A stretch of DNA of 33,395 nucleotides from assembly GCA_016234525.1 (NCBI GenBank), contig JACRBK010000734.1, positions 1 to 33,395 of the forward strand. Reading direction: 5' to 3'. Made by a program: the position numbers and the translations under genes. This document shows, piece by piece, positions 5,108 through 18,826 of this stretch (its first letter is position 1; the number at the start of each line of letters is the position of its first letter). The stretch is from Chloroflexota bacterium (GTDB taxonomy: Bacteria > Chloroflexota > Anaerolineae > Aggregatilineales > Aggregatilineaceae). The notes beneath the pieces are model-generated. The model was given only the letters and a program-made list of their open reading frames with translations. It was not told the DNA's origin and made no database searches.

Positions 5108-5455
5108 AGAATCGTAAACCAGGGTTTACCTTTTGGAGAGGATGCTATGACCAAACTGGACAGGGGACCGCCGGGATAAAAAAATCCCACCAACGAAAAT
5201 GCGGGTGGGCCGGGCAGATGTGATATAGATTGAACTGGACAATCAAACTGTATCACATCCCCGACTCTCCTGCAACTGAATTTCATCGTTTTCGCCGTGT
5301 TTCTTGGCACGACCTGTACTTCGAGTTGTCTGTCGTAAGGAGCACACTGAGATGAGTGGAGTGCTTGAACTCAATCGACCTGAACATGGCAGCGGAGTTT
5401 TACCGGTTTGTCCGATCTGTTTTATCGGTAAAACCCTCTTGAGAGAGAAATCGAT

Positions 5456-6855: not shown

Positions 6856-7874
6856 TGGACCACAAACAGATGTGTGTGGCGAATCTGAAGTACAAAAAAC
6901 CGACCGAAGCGGATTCCAAAAAGGCCAAAGGACTCTTGCGCTACCTGACCTATCGCGACAGCCGGGATGGACACATCAAACAGATGTCCGGCCAGGAACG
7001 CTGGGTGGATCACGGCCTGGGCCATACGGTGGGAGAAATCGCGGAGACGTGTGATAGTTACCAAAGCGAGCATGTGCTGGCGTTCACGCTGGTGTTCAAT
7101 CCTAATCCGAACCTTCTTTCGATGGTTCCCGAAAAGCGGCGCGGGCGGTTTGTGCGCGAACTGACCGAAAACACGCTGGACCAGTTTTTCGAGGCGCGTG
7201 GTCTGGATACTGGAATTGAGTTCGCGTATGTCACCCACCACCGTGTGAGTGAAGACCCCCAAGCACCAGGCCTGCCCGATCCGCATACGCACGTGATCCT
7301 GCCGGGAACTTACTTCGATGAAGGTGAGGGCAGGCGCGTGCCGCTGTTTTTCTCGCGGAACAAGCAGGTGGATCACATTGAATTACTGCACCAGATCACC
7401 GAAAAGAACATGGCCGAGGGGATGGAGCGGTACGTTGGCCTGGATTGGGAGCGGCGCTACGATGCCCTGGAAGCAGCCCGGGAACAGCAGCGTAAGGTGG
7501 TCGAACGCGAGCCAGATGGGGAGTTTTTCGACGATAGGATCGTCTGGCCGGTGTGGGCTGGGGTACGCCGCATGACGGAAGACACCAGCGCCGCCGGGAT
7601 CTACCGTTATTTTCCGGTGGCTCCGACCAGCGGTCAGACCGAGTTTGAGCCGGACGAACTGCGGCTTGAGTTCCGCCCGCTCCTCCAGCTTCTCGACCAT
7701 GGCCTGGCCGATACCGTCGCCCAGGCGTTTGCCTACCAGATGCGCGCCTATCCCGATCCGTCTCTGACAAAGCTGGAAGACTATGCCCGGCAGTTGGTAG
7801 AGGATGCCCAGGCGGATTCGGGCACGCGACCGGGACTGGACATCCAGCGCGAAGGCCCTTCGTTCGACTTGTAG
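6855..7874 (+). CDS. relaxase/mobilisation-nuclease-like protein (MobA/VirD2-type motifs)
   Basis: The N-terminal 'AKGLLRYLTYRD' is a Tyr-containing motif I candidate. 'HVLAFTLVFNPNP' resembles the relaxase 'h.i.S..P' block. 'THHRVSED...PDPHTHVILPG' resembles the His-triad HxD...PHxH. ATG 6855 overlaps the upstream TGA. Confidence 0.5.
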   Translation: MDHKQMCVANLKYKKPTEADSKKAKGLLRYLTYRDSRDGHIKQMSGQERWVDHGLGHTVGEIAETCDSYQSEHVLAFTLVFNPNPNLLSMVPEKRRGRFVRELTENTLDQFFEARGLDTGIEFAYVTHHRVSEDPQAPGLPDPHTHVILPGTYFDEGEGRRVPLFFSRNKQVDHIELLHQITEKNMAEGMERYVGLDWERRYDALEAAREQQRKVVEREPDGEFFDDRIVWPVWAGVRRMTEDTSAAGIYRYFPVAPTSGQTEFEPDELRLEFRPLLQLLDHGLADTVAQAFAYQMRAYPDPSLTKLEDYARQLVEDAQADSGTRPGLDIQREGPSFDL

Positions 7875-7965
7875 CCGAGAAGCACACAGAGGATCGGGGC
7901 GGATGTCGTCGCCAAACGTATCGCCCAAATCCCCTGTGTGCCACACTCAAAAGGTGAAAAATAGT

Positions 7966-10926
7966 ATGACATACAATGACTCTGCTCACAAGGCAGCGGT
8001 GGCTTTATCACCTGCTGCCCGGCGAGAGGATTTCCTGGCTTCACTCTACGGCCAGGCGGATCCGGCCCTCTGGCTGGAGATACGCTGTATCCATCCCGAA
8101 ACCGAAGCCAGCCGCGTGTTATGGTCGCCGGTGGGTGACCAATCTCGGCTGGCGGCTGTCTTACGCCAGGCGGATGCCCTGAACAAAGCCGGTTTCGGAG
8201 TCTATGTCGCGCCCTGCCTGCGCCGGGAGAAAAAAGGCGATGCCCAGGCGGTTGTCTCAGTGCCTGCACTGTGGATGGACATCGACTGTGACGACGATCC
8301 CGGCCAGCGCGCTGCCGCGCTTGAGAAACTGCACACCTTCGACTTGAAACCCTCAATCCTCCTGGATAGTGGGGGAGGTTGGCACGCTTACTACCTGCTC
8401 GATGTGCCTTTCATGCTTCAAAACGACGAGGACCGGCAGCACCTCGCTCATATTCTGCGTGGGTTGTCGGCGACGCTGGGCGGCGACACAGACTACGTGA
8501 AGTCGGTAGCCTCTCTCATGCGCCTGCCGGATTCGGCCAATACCAAGCCGGAGCGCGGCGGCGTGGTAGCCGCAATAACTGAGTTCCATCCGGAGCGGCG
8601 TTATCCGCTCACCGCGTTTGAATGGCTGGCGGTGCAGCCGCAGCAGAAGCTGCTGCCAGTGCAGTTGGTGTCTGGGAACGGTCATTATGCCCCGCTGCCC
8701 CAGGTAACTCTCGACTACCTGAGTCGGGGAGCCTCCAACGGTAGCCGCAACCGGGCGCTGTTCGATGCGGCCTGCCAGTTTCGGGATGCAGGCTACAGCC
8801 AGGCGGAAGCCGAAGCCCAGCTTGTCTTACGCCACGTCGCGGACGGAGGATCAGGCGAAAATCCGGCAGCGCGGGAGCGGGAAGCACGAGCCACCATCAC
8901 CAGTGTTTACCGGCAGTCTGCCCGCGATCCGATAACGCCACCTGCCCAGAATGCACGTGAGTGGGTGAATAACCTCTTGAGCCGTTTCAGCAGCCAGGAA
9001 CAGCCGGAACGTCCCACACCGGAACGGATCGCGGAAGTAATCTCAGCCTGCGCCCACCTGGAACCGGTCGAATGGGCGGTACAGCGCACCAAACTCAAGG
9101 AGCTGTGCGGGAATGGTGTGAAAACCGGCGACCTGGAGCGCCAGTACCGGCAGGCGCGTAAGACACTGGAACGCGAGCGTTACCAGGCGCAACCGGAAAA
9201 TGAGAGTTATCTTGAGATGGATGGCCGCATGGTCCACCGGCGAGAAACGTACTACGGTCCGGCAGACAAAACCGTCGCGGCGTGGACTGCGCATGTCACC
9301 GAACGTATCTCCCAGGTCAACGATGATGGGCAGGTGGAGCATGTCACGACGCTCGTGTTAACCAAAGACACCCAGACCTTCACGCTGCAAGTACCAAGCG
9401 AAGTCTTTGGTGACGACGCGGCGCTGCGGCGGTTCATCGCTGGCCGGGGTGGGGAGATTTTCACTGTTCGTGCCGGGATGGGCAAACATCTCGCCCCGGC
9501 CATCTTGAGCCTGTCGGGTGACTATCCGACTCGGACGAACTATCGTTTCATGGGCTGGACCCAGATCGATGGGCACTGGACCTATGTTTCGCCGGGTTTC
9601 TGCGTGAATGCGGTCGGGAGAATGGAGGAGCCGCCCGATGTCGAACTGGACGCCCGGCTGCGGGATTATGGCTTGCAAGACACTACCTGGGAAAACGGGG
9701 TAAGAGCGTTTGAGGCGATGATCCCGGTGTTTCCGAAGCAGCTTGCGCCGACGTGTATTGCCTTTGCGCTGCTGCCGCTGCTGCAACGTTTTTTTCCGGC
9801 AGCCGCGCCGCGACCGGCGATCCACCTGGCCGGGACCTATGGCAGTGGCAAGTCTGAATTGGCCGCGCTGATGAGCAGCTTCTACGGGAAGTTTTCGCGT
9901 GATACCCCACCTTCTCAGTGGGGGGATACCATCAACACGGTAGAGGCGATGGGTTACCCGTTGGCCGATGCACTCTACTGGGTCGATGACTACAAGAGCA
10001 TTTATGCCGACGAACGGACTTTCACCCGCTTCCTGCAAAGTTATTCGCGCGGCATGGGGCGGGGGAGACTGACCCGCGAAGCCAAACTGCGCCAGGAACG
10101 CCCCTGTCGTGGACTGCTGCTCAGCACCGGTGAGACGGTGTTGGAAGGCGAGGCCTCGGTGCTGTCTCGCATGTTGGTGCTTGACGTGCCGCCCTGGGAA
10201 CATCGCGATCCTGGTGGTAAGCTGCTTGCTCAGGCAGATCAATTCCGGGAGCATCTCTCCGGTTTCACGGTCGAGTTTGTGGCGTGGATTGCTCGCCAGG
10301 TCGAAGAGCATGACCTGGTGGGTGACATCGCCCGGCGTTTTGCGGCCAGCGCTGAGGGTTATCGTAAGAAGCTGGCGATGTTGGGCGGTTCACAGGCCAA
10401 TACCGGGCGGATTATCCAGAACTGGGCCGTGCTGGTCACTGTCTACCAACTGCTGCGTAAGTTCCTAGAAGAAAAAGAGGCCGACGACGTGCTCCCTGGT
10501 TGGCAGGATGTGATCCTGGAAACCGCCCAGGCGGTGCGGCAGGAACGCGCCAGCGAGGTGTTTCTGAACAACCTGGCGCAGCTGCTCGCCAGCGGCGAGG
10601 TGATGTTCTCCACTGACATGAAACAGCCCGAAGAACCTCGACCGGGCGTGACAGTCGTGGGCTACCGGGATGCCCAGTACCTCTACCTGCTGCCCGAAGT
10701 CGCCTACCGCGAAGTCAACCGCGTGCAGCCGCTGCGTTTCACTGCGGCTGCGATTGGCACGCAGTTACGGGAAGAAGGGTGTTTAGTGCCGTTCAACGGT
10801 GATCGGCATCTGGCGGTCCAGATCCGAGTACGTGGCAACCGGGTGCGCGCCTGGCGTCTCAAAGCCGAAATCTTGTGTGGAGACGGTGGAGAAAGTGGAG
10901 ACACCGCCGCAGAATTGGATGTATAG
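7966..10926 (+). CDS. bifunctional primase-polymerase / P-loop helicase-like replication protein
   Basis: Prim-pol/RepB-type motifs are 'GFGVYVAPCLRR', 'ALWMDIDCDDD' (DxD) and 'LDSGGGWHAYYLL'. A PriCT-like segment 'NRALFDAACQFRDAGYSQAEAEAQL' follows. Walker A 'AGTYGSGKSELAAL' and Walker B-like 'LYWVDDY' are present. The start is uncertain: ATG 7903 (GAGGA 9 nt upstream) is an alternative, and the track start 7804 overlaps the previous gene. Confidence 0.85.
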   Translation: MTYNDSAHKAAVALSPAARREDFLASLYGQADPALWLEIRCIHPETEASRVLWSPVGDQSRLAAVLRQADALNKAGFGVYVAPCLRREKKGDAQAVVSVPALWMDIDCDDDPGQRAAALEKLHTFDLKPSILLDSGGGWHAYYLLDVPFMLQNDEDRQHLAHILRGLSATLGGDTDYVKSVASLMRLPDSANTKPERGGVVAAITEFHPERRYPLTAFEWLAVQPQQKLLPVQLVSGNGHYAPLPQVTLDYLSRGASNGSRNRALFDAACQFRDAGYSQAEAEAQLVLRHVADGGSGENPAAREREARATITSVYRQSARDPITPPAQNAREWVNNLLSRFSSQEQPERPTPERIAEVISACAHLEPVEWAVQRTKLKELCGNGVKTGDLERQYRQARKTLERERYQAQPENESYLEMDGRMVHRRETYYGPADKTVAAWTAHVTERISQVNDDGQVEHVTTLVLTKDTQTFTLQVPSEVFGDDAALRRFIAGRGGEIFTVRAGMGKHLAPAILSLSGDYPTRTNYRFMGWTQIDGHWTYVSPGFCVNAVGRMEEPPDVELDARLRDYGLQDTTWENGVRAFEAMIPVFPKQLAPTCIAFALLPLLQRFFPAAAPRPAIHLAGTYGSGKSELAALMSSFYGKFSRDTPPSQWGDTINTVEAMGYPLADALYWVDDYKSIYADERTFTRFLQSYSRGMGRGRLTREAKLRQERPCRGLLLSTGETVLEGEASVLSRMLVLDVPPWEHRDPGGKLLAQADQFREHLSGFTVEFVAWIARQVEEHDLVGDIARRFAASAEGYRKKLAMLGGSQANTGRIIQNWAVLVTVYQLLRKFLEEKEADDVLPGWQDVILETAQAVRQERASEVFLNNLAQLLASGEVMFSTDMKQPEEPRPGVTVVGYRDAQYLYLLPEVAYREVNRVQPLRFTAAAIGTQLREEGCLVPFNGDRHLAVQIRVRGNRVRAWRLKAEILCGDGGESGDTAAELDV
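10877..10902 (+). repeat. 9-bp-period triplet GTGGAGAC-G-GTGGAGAA-A-GTGGAGAC (cluster 1, inside the primase 3' end)
   Basis: Read directly from the sequence. It encodes the ...CGDGGESGDT... tail of the primase-helicase. Confidence 0.85.
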
Positions 10927-10940
10927 GATGTGATTCTGTT

Positions 10941-10966
10941 GTGGAGACAGTGGAGATAGTGGAGAC
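10941..10966 (+). repeat. 9-bp-period triplet GTGGAGAC-A-GTGGAGAT-A-GTGGAGAC (cluster 2)
   Basis: Read directly. It is preceded by TGATTCTGTT, similar to the AAATCTTGT that precedes cluster 1. Confidence 0.85.
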
Positions 10967-11221
10967 AAACGACAGATTCACTATCTGTTCACCCGAAAAA
11001 TAGATCTGGACTCAGAAATAAAGTCCTGAATTCAGAAATAAAGTCTTGGACTGAAAATGGCAATCAGTGAGCGTAATGCGAAAAACAGCGCATTCGGCTA
11101 AGGGAAAAAGCACTCGCCCAGTCCAGAACTTTATTTCTGGAAAATGCGGTAGCTGAATGGCGTGTATTTCGATGAAAAGGGGCCAGTTCAGAACTATATT
11201 TCTGGTGAACACTATCTGCCT

Positions 11222-11246
11222 GTCTCCACGGCTCCACTGTCTCCAC
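11222..11246 (-). repeat. inverted copy of the triplet (GTCTCCAC-G-GCTCCAC-T-GTCTCCAC; cluster 3)
   Basis: Its reverse complement reads GTGGAGAC-A-GTGGAGC-C-GTGGAGAC. Confidence 0.85.
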
Positions 11247-11323
11247 TTGGAAAAGTCAAAAATGACTGAAAATCAAAAATTTCAGGGGGTATACAAATCC
11301 GACTCGCAGTTCTGAATCAGATT

Positions 11324-11349
11324 GTGGAGTAAGTGGAGACAGTGGTGAC
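11324..11349 (+). repeat. 9-bp-period triplet GTGGAGTA-A-GTGGAGAC-A-GTGGTGAC (cluster 4)
   Basis: Read directly from the sequence. Confidence 0.8.
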
Positions 11350-11828
11350 AAAACACCGATTTTGCCCCGCTGTTCACTGACAATATAGTTCTGGACTAGA
11401 CAATAAAGTTCTGGACCGGAAGATGAGCGAAATACAGGTCTGCTACGTTGAAAAACAAGCTTTTCTCGCTCAGCCGTGCGAAAGTCTGGTGCTGTTCCAG
11501 GCATTGAGTCCAGAACTTTATTGTTTCGATTTTGAGGCCCTCTGTCAGCCCTTGATCGCCCAGTTTAGAACTTTATTGTCTCAAACCGGTTCAAATCTGG
11601 CGCGTTTTTCACGTAATGCACTCAGACCCAGTCTAGAACTTTATTGTTGGTGAACACCCGCATCTCCCCGTTCGTCAGCGTGATGGAGCGTTTACGAAGA
11701 CATGAGCAAGATGTAAGTGTGGCTTACGATTCCACATCGCAAATCATGATGCTGCTTGACTTGTCTGTAGGTCAGACCTGAAGGATACTCTAAGTATTAT
11801 CACCAACTGCTCTGAACCGAGAATTATC

Positions 11829-12488
11829 ATGAGAATTATCGCACTCCCTGATTTACATGAAGCCATAACTCATTTGGAGGGAATCTCCCAACAGTTAGCT
11901 TCTGTGGATCTGGTTCTCCTCGTGGGAGATCTTACCAATTCTGGCAGCGTCGTTAATGTTTCTCGTGTCATCAATGCAGTACGTCAATACAATTCGTCTA
12001 TCCTCGCTGTACCAGGAAACTGGGACAAAGTCGAGGTTGATGGTTATCTTAGTCAGATAGGCATCAATCTACATCATCGTCATATCGTGATGGATGGCAT
12101 CGCTTTCGTAGGGGTAGGTGCCGCGCTTTATTCTCCCAACCGCTCACCTAATGAAGTCAGCGAAAATGACCTCAAGGCATTTTTAGAAGAGGCGATATCC
12201 GGTTTGGATAATTCGCTCCCTAAAATACTTGTCTGTCATCAGCCTCCCATTCAATCTCTAGTCGACAAAACGTGGTCTGGTCTGCACATCGGTAGCGAAA
12301 CGATCCGTACCTTTATACATGAGACACAACCGCTCCTTTGTTTTTCGGGTCACGTACATGAAGGAGTGGGGATTGATAGTATTGGCAGGACACAAGTAAT
12401 CAATCCTGGCCCCATATGGGAAGATAGGTATGCTTATGCGGAAATAGTGGATCAGCAGATAGTGGCCTTAGAAATCCGTAGCTGTTAG
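11829..12488 (+). CDS. calcineurin-like metallophosphoesterase
   Basis: The motif series is complete: 'ALPDLHE' (DxH), 'LVGDLTN' (GD), 'PGNWD' (GNH/WD), 'VCHQPP' and 'SGHVHEG' (GHxH). The gene is visibly AT-richer than both flanks. Confidence 0.85.
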   Translation: MRIIALPDLHEAITHLEGISQQLASVDLVLLVGDLTNSGSVVNVSRVINAVRQYNSSILAVPGNWDKVEVDGYLSQIGINLHHRHIVMDGIAFVGVGAALYSPNRSPNEVSENDLKAFLEEAISGLDNSLPKILVCHQPPIQSLVDKTWSGLHIGSETIRTFIHETQPLLCFSGHVHEGVGIDSIGRTQVINPGPIWEDRYAYAEIVDQQIVALEIRSC

Positions 12489-12833
12489 ACGAAACTATCC
12501 CCATTTTATCCCCGCAACGCTGCCGCCGACGCGGCGATTGAACAACGCGGGCGGCCTTCCCCTCAAGTCACGGCAGCGGCACGCTGGCACTACTCTGCGA
12601 GCAGTACCACCGAGCCACTTGCCTCACCTGCTGCGCTCGGGAGGAGATTCACCGGATGAATGGAGAGAAAATCTGATCCAATACCTGTTGTGAGACATGC
12701 CGCAGGTGGCCTTGACGGGTCCCTTCCTCTGCGTTGTGCCGTGAGGGTACCGGCGCGTTGCCGGTATTCAACGGATGAGCCGCCCAGTGATGCAACACCA
12801 AGCGGCTCTTAGACAACTGACACGGAGGTCAGC

Positions 12834-13763
12834 ATGTCTCACAACGATTCTACCAGCAACACCACCTTCGAGCAGTATTTCGAGGACCGTTTCGCGCCGG
12901 TCGAGGCCACCCTGTCAATCTGGGGTGTGCGGGCGTTTCCCCGCAAGGGCGACCTGGCACGCGATGAAGCGCTCCAACAGGCGCGGATCGTGATGTGGAC
13001 CCAGTACAGCGGCGATCCCGAAACCTGGGCATCCAAACCACCGCAGGTCTGGGTTGCCTTCTCCAAGCAGGTCTATGAGCATTTCATCCTGCATGAGAAG
13101 GTGGTTGAGCGCCACACGGATTATGCCGAGGACCTGGTCCGCGACGACAGCGACCAGACCGGCGATGAGGCTCTCTCCGGCAAACTCCGCGCTCAGCAGC
13201 AGCGCTCCCAATATCCCCGCGAAACCCTGCTGGCCGACGACCGGATCGACCTGGAACGGGGCATCCGGCGCGGCTTTGAGAAACTGCCCGAACGCTACCA
13301 CGCTGATATGCGCCTGGTGATGGCTGACATCATGGAAGGCTACAGCCAGATCGAAATCCGCCAGCGGCACGGCTGGTCCGACAACCACACGCGAGTGCTG
13401 TTTCGCCATCTGCGCACCACCTTCTACGAGGCGCTGACCGGCCACAAGCGCCCACCGTGCGGGTACGTGGGCAGCAAAGCCCCGGCCACCGATGATGAAC
13501 TGTGCCAACTGTGTGAACTGCGCGCCCAGGGCTTGAGCTTCGTCAAGATCGGCGCACGCCTGGGCTACTCTCAGGGGTGGGTGATGCAGAATCTCCGGCA
13601 GATGCAGCATCACCGTCCGACGCTCACCGAGCGTGAGCAAGCGCGGAACGAGCGCATTGCCGAGGTGCAGGCACTGCTCGACCAGGGCATGAAACTTCGG
13701 AACATCGCCGTGGAATTGGGCACAAGCTACAACACCGTCCGGCGGCTGCTGGGCAAGTGTTGA
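12834..13763 (+). CDS. sigma-70/ECF-like regulator with two additional C-terminal HTH modules
   Basis: A region-2-like segment is 'DLARDEALQQARIVMW'. A region-4-like segment is 'LPERYHADMRLVMADIMEGYSQIEIRQRHGWSDNHTRVLFRHLRTTF'. Further HTHs are 'LRAQGLSFVKIGARLGYSQGWVMQNL' and 'GMKLRNIAVELGTSYNTVRRLL'. GGAGG SD lies before the ATG. Confidence 0.6.
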   Translation: MSHNDSTSNTTFEQYFEDRFAPVEATLSIWGVRAFPRKGDLARDEALQQARIVMWTQYSGDPETWASKPPQVWVAFSKQVYEHFILHEKVVERHTDYAEDLVRDDSDQTGDEALSGKLRAQQQRSQYPRETLLADDRIDLERGIRRGFEKLPERYHADMRLVMADIMEGYSQIEIRQRHGWSDNHTRVLFRHLRTTFYEALTGHKRPPCGYVGSKAPATDDELCQLCELRAQGLSFVKIGARLGYSQGWVMQNLRQMQHHRPTLTEREQARNERIAEVQALLDQGMKLRNIAVELGTSYNTVRRLLGKC

Positions 13764-13769
13764 TCACTG

Positions 13770-13790
13770 GGGCCGCGAGGCCCTTTTTTT
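13770..13790 (+). terminator. intrinsic terminator
   Basis: GGGCC-GCGA-GGCCC gives a 5-bp GC stem with a GNRA loop, followed by seven T residues (13784-13790). It lies 7 nt after the stop of the regulator gene. Confidence 0.65.
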
Positions 13791-13881
13791 GTTGACATCC
13801 AGAATAAGGCGGCGCGTACTGTTTCTCCCAGTGTTTCTCCGGTGCTATACTACGGGCTTATGAACCTCTATTTTTGTTGAC

Positions 13882-16779
13882 ATGAGACTTTGCCCTATGC
13901 CTGATCACACTCCTCAGCAGTTTGTCGAAAAATGGGAGCGCGCCGAACTGAAAGAGCGCGCCAGTGCTCAATCACACTTTGATGACGTGTGCCGACTGGT
14001 AGGACATCCAACCCCTACTGAAATGGACCCTTCCGGCGAGTTTTTCTGCTTCGAGGCTGGCGGAAAAACGACTTCCGGCGGCCAGGGTTACGCCGATGTC
14101 TGGTACAAGGGCCACTTCGCCATCGAGTATAAAGGCAAGGGCAAGTATGAAACACTCGACGCGGCCTACCAGCAGCTTCTCAAATACCGCGAGTATTTGG
14201 GCAATCCCCCGCTGCTAATCGTGTGCGACATCGAACATTGGGAGATTCACACCAACTTCACCGGCACGGAAAAGCGGGTTCATCGTTTCACCAACCGCGA
14301 CATTGCCACCACGACCCGTATCCAGCGGATGCTGCGCTGGTTGTTCGAGGACCCGCAGCAGTTCCACCCGGAGCGCACTGCCGAGCAAGTCACGGCGGAG
14401 GCGGCTGGTGGATTCAAGGACATTGCCAGTAACATGCGCGCCTGGGAAGCGGCCCCGGAACGGATCGCGCATTTCCTGACCAAGCTGGTGTTCTGCCTGT
14501 TTGCAGAGGATGTCGGGCTGCTGCCTGCCGGGTTGAGTGGCAAGGGGCTGTTCACCGAGATCGTTGAGCAAACCCGCACCAAACCCCGCGAATTTGTGCT
14601 GTACACCCAGCAGTTGTTCCAGGCGATGGCGCAGGGCGGCAAGGTCCAGTTCCGTGACATTCGCTGGTTTGATGGCATCCTGTTTGATGATGTGGTGGTC
14701 GAGGAACTCAGCCAGGAAGCGCTCAACGCCCTGGAACGAGCGTGCCGCGTGGATTGGTCCTCTGTTGAACCGGCTATCTTCGGGACGCTGTTCGAGCGCA
14801 GCCTGGACCCGTCCAAGCGGGCGCAGTTGGGCGCGCACTACACCAGCCGCAGCGATATTCTGCTGATCGTTGAGCCGGTGCTGATGCAGCCGCTCCGCCG
14901 TGAGTGGGACACGGTCCAGCTAGAGGCGGCCCCGGTGCGCGAAAAGTACGACGCGGCGCTGAGGGATGGCACGCGGGCGACGATCACCCGTTTTGCCAAT
15001 GAACTGCTGGCCCTGCGTGAACGGATTCTGCACAAGCTGCGTTCCGTGACCGTACTCGATCCGGCGTGCGGATCGGGCAACTTCCTGTATGTCTCGCTGC
15101 AACTGCTCAAGGATATGGAAAAAGAGGTCATCCACCATCCCCTGTGGCATGATCTGCCGCTGGCAATCCCCGAAGTCCACCCGCGCCAGTTGTACGGCGT
15201 CGAGATCAACCCCATCGCGCACGATCTCGCCTCGATTGTGGTGTGGATCGGGTACATCCAGTGGCAGCAGAACAACGGCTATCTGTCGTTCAAGGAGCCG
15301 ATCCTCGAACCGCTGACCAACATCCGGCAGATGGACGCGATCCTGGCCTTCGATGAGGACGGGAACCCGGTAGAACCGGAGTGGCCGAGCGTGGATGTGA
15401 TCGTGAGCAACCCGCCGTTTTTAGGCGACAAAAAGATGCGCGCTGAGTTGGGCGATCCATATGTAGATACATTGCGCAACCTTTACGAGGACAAGATACC
15501 CGGCCAGAGTGATCTGGTGTGCTATTGGTTCGAGCAGGCGCGGCAGATGATCGAACAGGGCGCGGTGAAGCGTGCTGGATTGCTGGCGACCAACTCGATA
15601 CGCGGCGGCGCAAACCGCAGGGTGCTTGAGCGTATCAAGGAGACAGGCGACATTTTTATGGCATGGAGCGATCGGGATTGGATTCTCGAAGGTGCTGCCG
15701 TGCATGTATCGATGATTGGGTTCGACAACGGTCAGGAATTCAACCCAATTTTGGATGGGACAGAAGTAAAACATATCAATGCCGATCTAACTGGTGCATC
15801 CAATACTGTTTCTGCAATACGACTTCGTGAAAACAGCAACTTATCTTTTATTGGAATTGCACAGCATGGCCCATTCAGTATTGATGCAGAGCAAGCACAG
15901 CAATTACTCACGGTAAAGAACGATTCGGGACTTCCCAATTCTGATGTAGTGGTTAGATGGGCTAATGGTCTGGATATTACGAGCCGCCCTCGAAACATGT
16001 GGATCGTTGACTTTGGAACTGAGCGTTCTGAAGAGGAAGCTCGCAATTACCGTGCCCCATTCCAGTATGTTCAAGAATATGTGTATCCTATCCGTTCACA
16101 GAATCGACGCGACAGTCGGCGTAAACGCTGGTGGTTACTTGGTGAAACTATGCCAAAGATGAGGCAGGCTTTGGCTGTGTTGGATCGCTATATTGGTACG
16201 CCGCGTGTCGCCAAACATAGACTGTTTCAATGGTTCGACAGGTCAATACTTCCAGACAACCAGATTGTTGTTTTCGCCCGCGACGACGATTACTTCTTCG
16301 GCGTACTGCACTCACGTTTTCACGAAAAGTGGGCGCTGCGCATGGGAACATCGCTCGAAGATCGTCCGCGCTACACACCAACCACCACCTTTGAAACCTT
16401 CCCCTTTCCCTGGTCGCCCGGTCAGGAACCCACCGATCACCCTATCTATCGCGCCATCAGCGCCGCCGCTCAGCAGTTTCACGAGGAGCGCGAGGTGTGG
16501 CTCAACCCGCCGGGTGTTTCTGGCAAGGCGCTCGATCAGCGCACCCTGACCAATCTCTACAATGCGCTGCTGGTCTTTCGCGGCGATCCGCCCGCTGAAG
16601 GCAAAAGCCATCCGAAGATCGTCCCCGCCGCTGGAGATTTCGCGCCCCGCCTGATGGACCTGCACGCCGCGTTGGATCGCGCTGTGTGTGATGCGTATGG
16701 CTGGGAGTATGCCGTATTGGACGATGAAGAAGAGATTCTGCGCCGTCTGCTGGCGCTCAATTTGGAACGGGCAGGGTAA
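13882..16779 (+). CDS. MmeI-family Type IIL/IIG restriction-modification enzyme (fused PD-ExK nuclease + N6-adenine DNA methyltransferase + TRD)
   Basis: The N-terminal 'GYADVWYKGHFAIEYKGKGK' gives D-X9-E-X-K, the spacing of the MmeI nuclease motif. SAM motif I is 'VLDPACGSGNFLY' and catalytic motif IV is 'NPPFLG'. At 965 aa the length is typical of the family. An alternative start is ATG 13897. Confidence 0.85.
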   Translation: MRLCPMPDHTPQQFVEKWERAELKERASAQSHFDDVCRLVGHPTPTEMDPSGEFFCFEAGGKTTSGGQGYADVWYKGHFAIEYKGKGKYETLDAAYQQLLKYREYLGNPPLLIVCDIEHWEIHTNFTGTEKRVHRFTNRDIATTTRIQRMLRWLFEDPQQFHPERTAEQVTAEAAGGFKDIASNMRAWEAAPERIAHFLTKLVFCLFAEDVGLLPAGLSGKGLFTEIVEQTRTKPREFVLYTQQLFQAMAQGGKVQFRDIRWFDGILFDDVVVEELSQEALNALERACRVDWSSVEPAIFGTLFERSLDPSKRAQLGAHYTSRSDILLIVEPVLMQPLRREWDTVQLEAAPVREKYDAALRDGTRATITRFANELLALRERILHKLRSVTVLDPACGSGNFLYVSLQLLKDMEKEVIHHPLWHDLPLAIPEVHPRQLYGVEINPIAHDLASIVVWIGYIQWQQNNGYLSFKEPILEPLTNIRQMDAILAFDEDGNPVEPEWPSVDVIVSNPPFLGDKKMRAELGDPYVDTLRNLYEDKIPGQSDLVCYWFEQARQMIEQGAVKRAGLLATNSIRGGANRRVLERIKETGDIFMAWSDRDWILEGAAVHVSMIGFDNGQEFNPILDGTEVKHINADLTGASNTVSAIRLRENSNLSFIGIAQHGPFSIDAEQAQQLLTVKNDSGLPNSDVVVRWANGLDITSRPRNMWIVDFGTERSEEEARNYRAPFQYVQEYVYPIRSQNRRDSRRKRWWLLGETMPKMRQALAVLDRYIGTPRVAKHRLFQWFDRSILPDNQIVVFARDDDYFFGVLHSRFHEKWALRMGTSLEDRPRYTPTTTFETFPFPWSPGQEPTDHPIYRAISAAAQQFHEEREVWLNPPGVSGKALDQRTLTNLYNALLVFRGDPPAEGKSHPKIVPAAGDFAPRLMDLHAALDRAVCDAYGWEYAVLDDEEEILRRLLALNLERAG

Positions 16780-16803
16780 GGTAAGGGAGTATTATTTATC
16801 AAC

Positions 16804-16827
16804 AAAGCCGCTAAAGTCAGCGGCTTT
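16804..16827 (+). terminator. hairpin, possible terminator of the R-M gene
   Basis: AAAGCCGCT-AAAGTC-AGCGGCTTT forms a 9-bp stem 25 nt after the stop. The only T residues are the three inside the stem, so this is weak as an intrinsic terminator. Confidence 0.3.
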
Positions 16828-16904
16828 GACTGTATGACCATCTATAACGGTATCGAGGATATAGGTACTCTTGTGAAAAATGAAATTTTCTAGGTGAATG
16901 ATGC

Positions 16905-16930
16905 CTGGAAAGACTCGATACAACAGAGTT
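16905..16930. repeat. right element boundary (attR-like): inverted-repeat arm CTGGAAAGACTCGATACAACA followed by GAGTT core
   Basis: This is the partner of 416-438 (see that feature). Confidence 0.45.
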
Positions 16931-17233
16931 GTCTAAAAATGAAATCTTCGTTAATTTAACACGATTGTCATTGCAAACCCAAATAATCCGTGATAAGCTG
17001 TGGTAAAGTTTGTAATTGGATAGATTCAGGATTAATTACCGTCAGATGCCAACAGGTCGTAAACATTCCGATTGTTGTGAAGCAGACGGTAAGTCCATTT
17101 AAGAATGGTGATTATCAATCAGGCCTCACCGGTTTCCGTTTTGCCCCTAAGTGACCTGGTCTCTGTCTGACAGCACTAGACTCTCCCAAAGTAACGCCAG
17201 TGTGCTTACCAGAAAAGTAGTGTGCGGGTCTCT

Positions 17234-18826
17234 ATGAATATCTTCATTAGTTACAGCAGGAAAAGCTTTACTGTGGTCGAGACGCTTGCTGTTGATCTCG
17301 AAGCGTTAGGCTTCACTGTTTGGTTTGACCGTGAACTGGCGGGTGGACAGGAATGGTGGGAAGAAATCCTGCACAGTATTCGGCGCTCTCATCTCTTTCT
17401 CTACGCGCTGACCCCTGAGTCAATCGAGTCGTATCCCTGTAAGCTGGAATATGACTATGCTATGGCCCTGAATAAACGAATACTGCCCGTGATGTTGGCT
17501 GACATCAATATCTCATTACTGCCCTCCTCTGTTCAAAGATTCCAGATCGTTGATTATCGATTACAAGACAAACAACAGGCTTTAGCGCTAGGTCGGGCCA
17601 TGAACAGCCTACCCAAAACACGCCCGCTGCCCAAGCCGCTGCCGACCAAACCAGAAGCGCCCGTTCCTCCTCTGACTCGCCTGAGAGATCAAATCGATTT
17701 GCCCTCCCTGGGAAAAGATGAGCAGGAGCTGATCGTGGCGAGACTCAAGGAGTTTTTGGAGAATTCGGCCACCGCAAATGATGCGCGCAACCTGCTGACA
17801 CGGCTGTGTACACGCGATGACTTGCTGGCAAAAACGGAAAAAGAGATTAATCGCCTGCTCGGCGTTAAAAAGATCGCAGAAGGAGAGACACACCGGTCAC
17901 TTTTCAAGGCGGCTCCACAGGTTTTCAGTGGGCACACAGAAGCCGTGTTTGGGGTTGCTTACGCTCCGGATGGTAAAACAATCCTTACCGCGGGAGTAGA
18001 CAAGATTGCCCTGCTGTGGGATATCGCCACCGGTCAAGTTGTGAGTCGGCTGGTCGGCCATACCAATACCATCTGGAACATTGCTTATGCCCCTGACAGT
18101 CGTGTGGCGGCAACCAGCAGCCGTGACCGAACGGTTCGGTTGTGGAATTTGACCACAGGTGAAGAAATTTGCCAGCTTATTGGTCACACAGAATCGGTCT
18201 GGGGGGTGGCTTATGCGCCCAACGGACAAACGATCATAACCGGGGGGTTTGATAAGACGGCTCGGTTGTGGGATGTAGAAACGGGCAAAGATATCCGCCA
18301 GTTCATCGGTCATTCAGCAGCCGTGTGGGGGGTGGCCTATGCACCGGATGGTCAGACCGTGATTACGGGAAGTTGGGATCGCACAATCTGCTTGTGGGAC
18401 GTAGAAACCGGTAAAGAGATCCGCCGGTTTGCCGGACACACAAGTCCCGTATTCGGTGTTATTTACTCACCCGATGGACGAACCATTCTCTCAAGTTGTC
18501 GCGATGGTTATGCCAAGTTGTGGGACGTTCAAACTGGACAGGAACTAAGTGAACTGACGGGTCATGTTGCATTCAGTATCGCCTATGCCCCTGATGGGCG
18601 TACTATTCTCACCGGCGGTGGGGATAAGATGGTCTGTTTGTGGGAATCTGCCACCGGACGAGAATTGTACCGCTTCAACAGCCATACGGATGCAGTAACC
18701 AGTGTTGCCTTTTCACCGCTATCAAATGCCATTTTGACAGGCAGTGCGGATAAGACAGTACGGTTATGGAAACTAAATTTAGACAAAAAGCTGACGGAGA
18801 ACTCCGCGATGCTTAGCACCATTTAG
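17234..18826 (+). CDS. TIR-domain / WD40-repeat protein
   Basis: The N-terminal 'IFISYSRKSF...FTVWFDRE...LFLYALTPESIESYPCKLEYDYA...RILPVML' is a TIR signature that includes the (W/Y)xCxxE glutamate. A ~100-aa linker follows. Then come seven ~42-aa WD40 repeats of the form 'GHTxxVxxVAYAPDGxTIxTGxxDKTxxLWDxxTGxE'. The track ORF starts at GTG 17222. I prefer ATG 17234. Confidence 0.9.
   Translation: MNIFISYSRKSFTVVETLAVDLEALGFTVWFDRELAGGQEWWEEILHSIRRSHLFLYALTPESIESYPCKLEYDYAMALNKRILPVMLADINISLLPSSVQRFQIVDYRLQDKQQALALGRAMNSLPKTRPLPKPLPTKPEAPVPPLTRLRDQIDLPSLGKDEQELIVARLKEFLENSATANDARNLLTRLCTRDDLLAKTEKEINRLLGVKKIAEGETHRSLFKAAPQVFSGHTEAVFGVAYAPDGKTILTAGVDKIALLWDIATGQVVSRLVGHTNTIWNIAYAPDSRVAATSSRDRTVRLWNLTTGEEICQLIGHTESVWGVAYAPNGQTIITGGFDKTARLWDVETGKDIRQFIGHSAAVWGVAYAPDGQTVITGSWDRTICLWDVETGKEIRRFAGHTSPVFGVIYSPDGRTILSSCRDGYAKLWDVQTGQELSELTGHVAFSIAYAPDGRTILTGGGDKMVCLWESATGRELYRFNSHTDAVTSVAFSPLSNAILTGSADKTVRLWKLNLDKKLTENSAMLSTI

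Follow-up and report, generated by a model that had tools for sequence, protein, structure and literature searches.

The 33,395-nt stretch of Chloroflexota DNA analysed here (the window; contig JACRBK010000734.1) carries rep, a gene for a primase-helicase of 986 amino acids (aa), and directly after it a field of short repeats at 10877-11656. All coordinates are those of the whole window, and L-numbers denote the related loci that were compared with it. As judged from sequence comparison, the field is very likely a composite, in which two Tn7-type mini-transposons, elements A and B, have been inserted beside the repeats of a probable replication origin built from 9-bp units. The features of the locus are as follows.

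7966-10926, plus strand: rep gene, 986 aa, encoding an AEP (RepB'-like) primase, PriCT_1, a SaPI-Rep/Cch-like (DUF927) ATPase-helicase and a C-terminal winged-helix-like domain
10877-10903, plus strand: T1, first triplet cluster, GTGGAGACG GTGGAGAAA GTGGAGACA, within the rep 3' end; position kept in relatives
10941-10967, plus strand: T2, second direct triplet cluster, supported by Tandem Repeats Finder (TRF), motif count and the alignment of origins
10981-10985: target-site duplication CTATC, left copy, element A
10986-11211, plus strand: element A, non-autonomous Tn7-like transposon of 226 bp, termini TGTTCACC...GGTGAACA
11212-11216: target-site duplication CTATC, right copy, element A
11221-11246, minus strand: T3, inverted triplet cluster, TGTCTCCAC GGCTCCAC TGTCTCCAC
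11247-11323: AT-rich spacer, candidate unwinding region with conserved A-tracts, GC ~0.40-0.42 against ~0.6 in the flanking genes, aligned over eight origins
11324-11350, plus strand: T4, fourth triplet cluster, GTGGAGTAA GTGGAGACA GTGGTGACA
11366-11370: target-site duplication CCCGC, left copy, element B
11371-11656, plus strand: element B, non-autonomous Tn7-like transposon of 286 bp, second subfamily, termini TGTTCACT...GGTGAACA
11657-11661: target-site duplication CCCGC, right copy, element B

Three families of repeats had been described in this field by a first-pass annotation made from the sequence alone, and all three are present far above chance, as judged by TRF and by motif counts against dinucleotide-preserving shuffles. 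The first family consists of four clusters of the form (GTGGAGACN)x3. Period-9 arrays of about three copies are reported by TRF at 10877-10903, 10941-10967 and 11324-11350 in direct orientation and at 11220-11247 in inverted orientation, which confirms the three direct clusters and the single inverted one of the first description. The inverted cluster is refined to 11221-11246 and includes one unit of 8 nt. The double 9-mer GTGGAGAYNGTGGAGA, allowing two mismatches or fewer, has 8 matches, 7 of them within 10877-11348, against 0.16 in the shuffles. The second family is a repeat of ~18 bp, represented by the 16-mer AATAAAGTTCTGGACT; at no more than three mismatches it has 10 matches (shuffles 0.09), all in 10997-11645. 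Its occurrence in both orientations therefore stands, while the earlier count of about nine copies is corrected to ten, five each way. The short motif TGTTCAC makes up the third family and has the four copies in the field that had been noted, forward at 10986 and 11371 and in reverse (GTGAACA) ending at 11211 and 11656. Two further, unrelated copies occur elsewhere in the window.

The GC content goes from ~0.6 to ~0.4 across the field, and the AT-rich tract with its small palindromes is present as described. No convincing open reading frame (ORF) was found in the field, in agreement with the first reading. Short ORFs such as 11423-11653 were considered as genes and rejected, the start codon being gone in L001 and the region being transposon interior. 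An Rfam scan of the field gave a chance-level match only and no family, a promoter and terminator scan gave nothing relevant above shuffles, and a DNA similarity search of 7804-11900 against plasmids and phages gave no match.

The first-pass annotation had arranged these repeats in modules of triplet, TGTTCAC and iterons, with mirror images. The natural units are instead two blocks, 10986-11211 and 11371-11656, lying within a separate triplet array of four clusters. Each block has TGTTCAC...GTGAACA at its ends and a direct repeat of 5 bp on its flanks, and the appearance of mirror-image modules arises because each transposon sits beside a triplet cluster. The flanking repeats are perfect target duplications, CTATC/CTATC for element A and CCCGC/CCCGC for element B. 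Related copies are flanked by GTTGT, TGAGT, ACAAG, ATTAC (twice) and TTTAA, and in one copy the match is 4/5 (TTTGG/GTTGG). The termini are TGT...ACA, in short inverted repeats (TGTTCACC/T...GGTGAACA), in A, in B and in all related copies.

The ~18-bp repeats inside each block form an R arm with a 20-bp period and an L arm with sites 55-68 bp apart. Element A has three contiguous TnsB-type sites in its R arm (10995-11055, 20-bp period) and two spaced sites in its L arm (11117-11137 and 11182-11202); a third L site is gone by internal deletion, judged against a 294-bp copy in L001. Element B keeps two of three contiguous sites in its R arm (11380-11420), compared with fuller copies, and has three spaced sites in its L arm (11504-11524, 11559-11579 and 11627-11647). 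The 5-bp duplications, the Tn7 arrangement of sites and the empty sites in close relatives indicate that the ~18-bp repeats, first described as an iteron family, are putative TnsB-type transposase-binding sites in Tn7-like ends, and that TGTTCAC is the transposon terminus. The repeats of the two blocks do differ in their ends (...TTTCT and ...TTGTY), but this difference marks two transposon subfamilies and not a duplication followed by divergence in place.

Related loci show both occupied and empty sites. L001, whose Rep is 90% identical to that of the window, has two abutting blocks after T4, with the flanks GTTGT and TGAGT. Each of these runs from TGTTCAC to GTGAACA, with three sites repeated every 20 bp, then a spacer and then three sites at distances of 55-68 bp. 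Other copies of the B subfamily are found in L001 (TGAGT), in L088 (ATTAC) and in L008 with the left flank GAAGC, where the contig end cuts the rest. A further mini copy in L084 is flanked by TTTAA. There is nothing between T2 and T3 in L001, and nothing after T4 in L090, L094 and L095. The comparison with homologous elements that the first-pass annotation had proposed thus separates its repeats: the triplets are kept, whereas the 18-bp blocks are present or absent among close relatives. The occurrence of the same subfamily at different sites with different duplications gives indirect support for mobilisation by a cognate TnsABC and selector.

Elements A and B (226 and 286 bp) encode no transposition proteins, and no Tns genes were found in the window or in the 80 homologous Rep loci that were searched. 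Therefore, both elements are non-autonomous; having no genes, they depend on an autonomous TnsABCD element from their own lineage to mobilise them in trans. The mobilising partner is unseen at these loci, which speaks against the interpretation. A third subfamily of mini-elements has a 1.2-kb member at L002 4323-5521 with two small ORFs (93 and ~140 aa) that have no Pfam match; a 308-bp copy of this subfamily in L092 is without the two ORFs.

The ends were compared with those of Tn7 in plasmid R721, which has annotated TnsABCDE and verified Tn7 ends. The sites of the window and L001, and no others, were used to build a 21-nt matrix, with which 28.5 kb of R721 were scanned at a threshold of at least 12 bits. 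All 4 Tn7R sites and all 3 Tn7L sites were recovered by this matrix from Chloroflexota sites, with no further match, and both arms of A and B can be aligned in register with Tn7R and Tn7L. When metagenomes were scanned for the end pattern, they gave L086, with an R end, TnsA and TnsB, and L089, with TnsB-TnsC-TnsD and an L end. The Tns proteins of these two loci are 26-43% identical to TnsA-D of Tn7. L099 has a complete TnsABCD copy inside a related mobile element. The Tn7 clade is known to include Chloroflexi elements (PMC8649781). IMG/VR held no copy of the transposon end and no Rep relative except distant primase domains. With this end architecture and the flanking duplications, A and B are almost certainly non-autonomous Tn7-like transposons. 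Two TnsABC(D) gene sets in tandem, several with fragmented genes, are also found at L097 2864-15497 and L101 442-9448, and they look like stacked insertions at one attachment site.

Seven insertions were found in five origins: A and B in the window, A' and B' in L001, and those in L002, L008 and L092. In all seven the distance, measured 3' from the last 9-mer of T4 (of T2 for element A of the window), is 12-16 nt, and the R arm is towards the array. In the window, the distance from cluster to element is 13 nt plus the duplication for A (after T2) and 15 nt plus the duplication for B (after T4). The seven insertions represent three element subfamilies and stand beside three 9-mer types. Since the duplications are distinct or differently placed in six of the seven, they correspond to six independent insertions; the seventh, in L008, is cut by the contig end and has its left flank only. 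Insertion beside the triplet arrays is likely to be targeted, and the transposition machinery may be directed to the iteron arrays through a TnsD/TniQ-type selector or through the complex of Rep with its iterons.

A second insertion site is the stop codon of a conserved 83-aa gene, which is located ~4 kb upstream of Rep in relatives with actin-like partition (L092 6031-6282, minus strand; L099 2446-2697; L086 1-198; L084 2291-2545) and is absent from the window. This site holds autonomous TnsABCD elements (L086, L099/L100) and mini copies (L084, L092:5714-6029), and the R ends lie 0-5 nt from the stop codon in four loci (L086 directly, L099 at +1 nt).

Several observations weigh against targeting to the arrays. 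The sample of insertions is small and was partly gathered through Rep homology, so it is biased to this neighbourhood, and one B-type copy (L088) is at an unrelated site. No autonomous element was found at an origin array; all copies with a readable R-end flank (L086, L099/L100) abut the 83-aa gene. In addition, the autonomous relatives encode only one TnsD.

The clustering may also be the result of selection, with other insertions lost and the spots past T2 and T4 tolerated. The field is the only sizeable non-coding stretch near rep, the collection of loci through Rep introduces the sampling bias, and the gap between T2 and T3 holds a whole gene in some lineages, all of which would suit this explanation. 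It is less easily reconciled with a spread of 12-16 nt and a single orientation in seven of seven events across three subfamilies and three 9-mer types, for which a rough null with a 400-bp target gives ~0.02 per event. Several hundred bp of other downstream non-coding DNA are unused, and in Tn7-like systems the distance from a selector-bound site and the orientation of the insertion are typically fixed. Selection in place of targeting is therefore considered unlikely.

Targeting could take the form of a Tn7-like lineage that has specialised on one family of Chloroflexota integrative replicons and has the origin of that family as its homing site (an 'origin hunter'), although this proposal is tentative and is itself regarded as doubtful. 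The insertion point would be 12-16 nt 3' of an iteron triplet with the R end proximal, and the initiator-bound array or its distortion would be recognised instead of a fixed DNA sequence. Recognition of the bound array rather than the sequence would explain why the same offset is found at origins with three different 9-mers. Target selection of this kind is not listed in one published survey of Tn7 selectors, in which neither iterons nor origins are named as targets.

The triplet clusters are a property of the rep neighbourhood across the relatives. Three-unit period-9 arrays lie directly after the rep stop codon in most of the 80 homologous loci examined by TRF. In 69 loci analysed with a strict score, the array density is 1.72 per 560 bp after the stop and 0.017 per 560 bp inside rep, a difference of ~100-fold, and 41 of the 69 have at least two arrays. 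The recurrent layout, found in most of the 69 loci, is direct, direct, inverted, direct. The 9-mers themselves are lineage-specific and include GTGGAGACA, CGGTGACA, GTTGAGACA, CTGTGACR, a TGTGAA-type (CCTGTGAAA/GGTTGTGAA) and TGTGGGGCA. L021 has a plain version of the origin, ~290 bp long with nothing else inside. When A, B and one copy of each duplication are subtracted, the origin of the window is 309 bp and is collinear with those of seven relatives (290-327 bp). T1 overlaps the last 16 codons of rep and T2 begins 15 nt past the stop, and the same is found in most relatives. The succession of inverted T3, a 77-bp AT-rich spacer and direct T4 is kept in eight aligned origins. In some lineages a minus-strand ORF of ~210 aa is located between T2 and T3 (L018 8990-9660; L011, L026, L036); therefore, the distance between T2 and T3 seems free to vary. 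The opposed pair T3/T4 is probably the core of the origin.

Origins of the pathogenicity islands of Staphylococcus aureus (SaPIs) have 6-12 short iterons directly downstream of rep, with equal numbers on the two sides of an AT-rich centre and in opposite orientation, and these iterons are read by a winged helix in the C-terminal domain of Rep (PMC9371898). T1-T4 and the AT-rich spacer are likely to be a SaPI-type replication origin of an integrated Chloroflexota mobile element. The suggestion in the first-pass annotation of an origin directly 3' of the primase-helicase, as in SaPIs, is the best reading of the triplets and the AT tract given their layout, the co-variation with Rep and the structural matches. 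The twelve 9-bp iterons of such an origin, three in each of the four clusters (direct in T1, T2 and T4, inverted in T3), would be bound by the winged-helix-like C-terminal domain of Rep. Rep would self-load at both sides of the AT-rich spacer, melt it and then prime synthesis.

The window Rep has a Pfam match to PriCT_1, and its homologues match PF06048 DUF927 and PF16793 RepB primase; an NCBIfam search with Rep gave no match. In a phmmer search of the PDB, Rep matches 8tch (SaPIbov1 Rep) with an E value of 2.6e-4. A Foldseek search with the Rep model ranks 8tch first (E 5.8e-10) and 5dgk, SCCmec Cch, second (2e-8), and the S-2L PrimPol and RSF1010 RepB' primases (6zp9, 3h20) are next in line. 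The AlphaFold model has a mean predicted local distance difference test (pLDDT) score of 74 and comprises an N-terminal AEP primase, PriCT, a beta-rich domain, the ATPase and a C-terminal helix-turn-helix (HTH) with a hairpin at 910-966. The longest rep ORF, from 7804, would encode 1040 aa and overlap the preceding 340-aa gene; the start at 7966, ~54 codons further on, is the one used by the database protein and by all homologues.

The C-terminal region of Rep differs among the relatives together with the 9-mer. L001 has the same 9-mer as the window, and its Rep is 94-96% identical over the last ~150 alignment columns. The Reps of L002 and L003, which are 86% identical overall and are paired with other 9-mers, have 47-73% identity over these columns. 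L006 and L009 have the same 9-mer and Reps that are 72% identical overall, with 76-80% identity at columns ~900-1000. Mutual information identifies residues 928-969 as the Rep columns most informative on 9-mer type, in a test that phylogeny confounds, and in the AlphaFold model these residues fall on a predicted helix (927-936) and hairpin (951-966), that is, a predicted recognition helix and wing. The last ~16 residues co-vary trivially with the 9-mer because T1 encodes them. Since T1 lies inside the rep frame (10877-10926), the C-terminal tail ...CGDGGESGDT... is iteron-encoded and changes with 9-mer type in relatives. The winged-helix-like C-terminal domain of Rep appears to set the iteron specificity, and for this the alignment and the model are supportive only. 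Three points tell against it or against the wider model of Rep. The co-variation between the C-terminus and the 9-mer is in part confounded by phylogeny; residues ~420-540 (window ~9225-9585), in the predicted beta-rich domain, are a second region that tracks 9-mer type in matched pairs; and the ATPase core of the model has low pLDDT.

Alternatively, the triplets may not be an origin but operator or partition sites of the ribbon-helix-helix (RHH) protein, the 340-aa protein or the 309-aa HTH protein of these elements, or a regulatory array for rep or the cargo. The small RHH protein and the ~340-aa protein match Rep in how well their synteny is conserved, and short direct-repeat arrays also make up parC-type centromeres. 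However, the position of the arrays at the rep 3' end and the AT-rich centre that separates two opposed clusters follow the SaPI origin plan, the 9-mer type tracks the C-terminal region of Rep, and the arrays are common to elements with ParAB and elements with actin-like partition. It is quite unlikely that operator or partition sites of this kind account for the triplets.

The field had also been considered as a centromere for ParB. L090 has an actin-like partition gene and no ParB, yet it has CGGTGACA triplet arrays like those of the ParAB-type L095. L095 encodes a ParB that is 77% identical to that of the window and is without the 18-bp repeats. Since the ParB and the Rep of L095 are both 77% identical to those of the window, L095 alone is uninformative on which protein binds the triplets, and the ParB-less L090 is the useful case. 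With triplets present in ParB-less relatives and the 18-bp repeats missing from a ParAB-type one, an involvement of ParB in the field is not supported by these comparisons. TGTTCAC had been compared with a parS half-site, a role that does not hold for a transposon terminus, and there is no parS-like site in the window (no match to TGTTTCACGTGAAACA at three mismatches or fewer). An imperfect palindrome with 17-nt arms, GATGTGATATAGATTGA N9 TCAAACTGTATCACATC, lies at 5217-5259 in the gap after the ParB-like gene and is a more plausible centromere or operator candidate than anything in the field. In L090 4003-7500, and also in L091, a group II intron reverse transcriptase (RVT_1, Intron_maturas2, HNH) separates the ALP_N half of the actin-like partition gene from its MreB-like_C half, which suggests that this gene is intron-split.

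Domestication of the mini-elements, which would now serve the origin as bending, pairing or copy-control sites, is very improbable. What speaks for it is that several lineages have kept the mini-elements and that A is located between T2 and T3. Their presence or absence varies among close relatives, internal deletions erode the sites (two of three left in the L arm of A and in the R arm of B), and identical subfamilies occur at non-origin sites, which all argue against such a function. That both repeat families form one origin or centromere field produced by module duplication, with the 18-bp repeats bound by the primase-helicase or ParB, is scarcely credible: the geometry looks mirror-symmetric and a ParA/ParB pair is encoded 6 kb upstream, but the 18-bp repeats and TGTTCAC are always in blocks with 5-bp duplications, these blocks are missing from near-identical origins and present at unrelated sites, they match the Tn7 end architecture site for site, the same ends flank TnsABCD elsewhere, a ParAB relative is without the 18-bp repeats and the window has no parS. 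A P4-type origin was also considered, as TGTTCACC is also the type I iteron of phage P4. It was ruled out, since each TGTTCACC of the field makes up the last 8 bp at the edge of a duplication-flanked block; the match is coincidental, and the octamer is a transposon terminus abutting the target duplication.

The origin and the two transposons are part of a larger element. Upstream in the window are genes for a large serine recombinase, ParA, a ParB-like protein, a ribbon-helix-helix protein and the 340-aa protein. Downstream are a metallophosphoesterase, an HTH protein, an MmeI-like enzyme and a TIR-WD40 protein, followed by ordinary chromosomal genes. Homologues of Rep are found in metagenome-assembled genomes of Anaerolineae/Aggregatilineales (Chloroflexota), often in several copies per genome and on contigs of 0.1-6 Mb. 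They share a backbone of partition genes, small genes, RHH, the ~340-aa protein, Rep, a non-coding stretch and defence cargo, and the partition system of the relatives is either ParAB or an actin-like ATPase. Since this backbone with partition genes is shared, the element is an integrated, plasmid-like mobile element. In all relatives examined, a defence island is the cargo that comes right behind the origin (window 11829-18826; L090 13317-21724; L092 13608-20386), with an MmeI-like enzyme, TIR-WD40, type I restriction-modification, PIN and TIR proteins among its contents. A conserved HTH protein of ~309 aa is encoded after or within the defence island.

These results have consequences for annotation. 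A dense 'iteron field' by a replication gene can be a palimpsest, and more than half of the repeats here belong to parasitic mini-transposons. Transposon repeats that are read as origin or centromere sites would mislead functional tests. For this large and unstudied family of integrative elements in Chloroflexota, the T1-T4 array offers a simple origin model that can be compared among its members. It comes with natural specificity variants, as no fewer than six types of 9-mer are paired with variant C-terminal domains, and these could help to work out the recognition code. The same element family also harbours a compact TnsABCD parent that has no cargo. Homing to origin iterons, if true, would be a new kind of target choice in a system that is being engineered for programmable insertion.

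Both the origin and the transposon parts belong to known kinds. What is unusual is the triplet-of-9-mers origin plan in Chloroflexota, the natural derivatives of Tn7 that resemble MITEs (miniature inverted-repeat transposable elements), and the apparent homing to iteron arrays. The candidate origin is closest in plan to those of SaPIs. Like SaPI Rep/PriRep and SCCmec Cch, the window Rep is a helicase-initiator of the same fold family, and as in SaPI5 PriRep its primase is fused to the helicase. The iterons start from the very 3' end of rep, an AT-rich centre lies between opposed iterons, and the winged-helix-like C-terminal domain has an apparent iteron specificity according to the alignment and the model, all as in SaPIs. 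The window element also integrates by means of a large serine recombinase, as staphylococcal cassette chromosome (SCC) elements do. In contrast to SaPIs, the iterons of the window are 9-mers in four triplets (12 units), whereas those of SaPIs are 6-12 penta- or hexamers, and two extra direct clusters (T1 and T2) lie upstream of the opposed pair. The host belongs to the Chloroflexota (Anaerolineae/Aggregatilineales) and not to the Firmicutes. The window element has plasmid-type partition genes and a defence island and no phage-satellite functions, and its Rep is only ~13% identical to SaPI Rep.

The origin may also be compared with iteron plasmid origins (pPS10, RK2, R6K, P1) and with phage P4 ori/crr, where initiator-bound direct repeats lie beside an AT-rich unwinding region. 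The alpha protein of P4 is a fusion of primase, helicase and initiator, as is the window Rep. Plasmid iteron origins differ in that their initiator is a winged-helix dimer of the RepA/pi type that recruits DnaB, whereas a self-loading helicase of the SaPI-Rep/Cch type is predicted here.

Elements A and B share with Tn7 the TGT...ACA termini and the 5-bp target duplication, an R end with contiguous TnsB sites of ~20 bp and an L end with three sites ~55-70 bp apart. The site consensus, ACAATAAAGTTCTGGACT, is close to that of Tn7, ACAATAAAGTCTTAAACT, and the autonomous relatives encode TnsA, TnsB, TnsC and TnsD. The R end is proximal to the presumed target determinant, and tandem insertion at one site occurs, both as in Tn7. 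Unlike Tn7, the window copies of 226 and 286 bp have no genes and are natural MITE-like derivatives, and their terminal 8 bp are TGTTCACC where Tn7 has TGTGGGCG. Their sites are inside another mobile element (origin arrays and the stop codon of the 83-aa gene) and not downstream of glmS or a tRNA gene. Two related subfamilies lie within 160 bp of each other in the window and abut in L001, which differs from Tn7 with its typical target immunity.

The nearest parallel to the tentative origin hunter is with the res-site hunters of the Tn5053 family. Tn5053 and Tn402 belong to the same wider TnsB/TniA-TnsC/TniB-TniQ family, home to a functional nucleoprotein site on plasmids and produce 5-bp duplications. 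They differ from the elements described here in two ways: the relatives of A and B have TnsA while Tn5053 and Tn402 are without it, and the target of Tn5053 and Tn402 is a resolvase-bound res site and not an iteron array.

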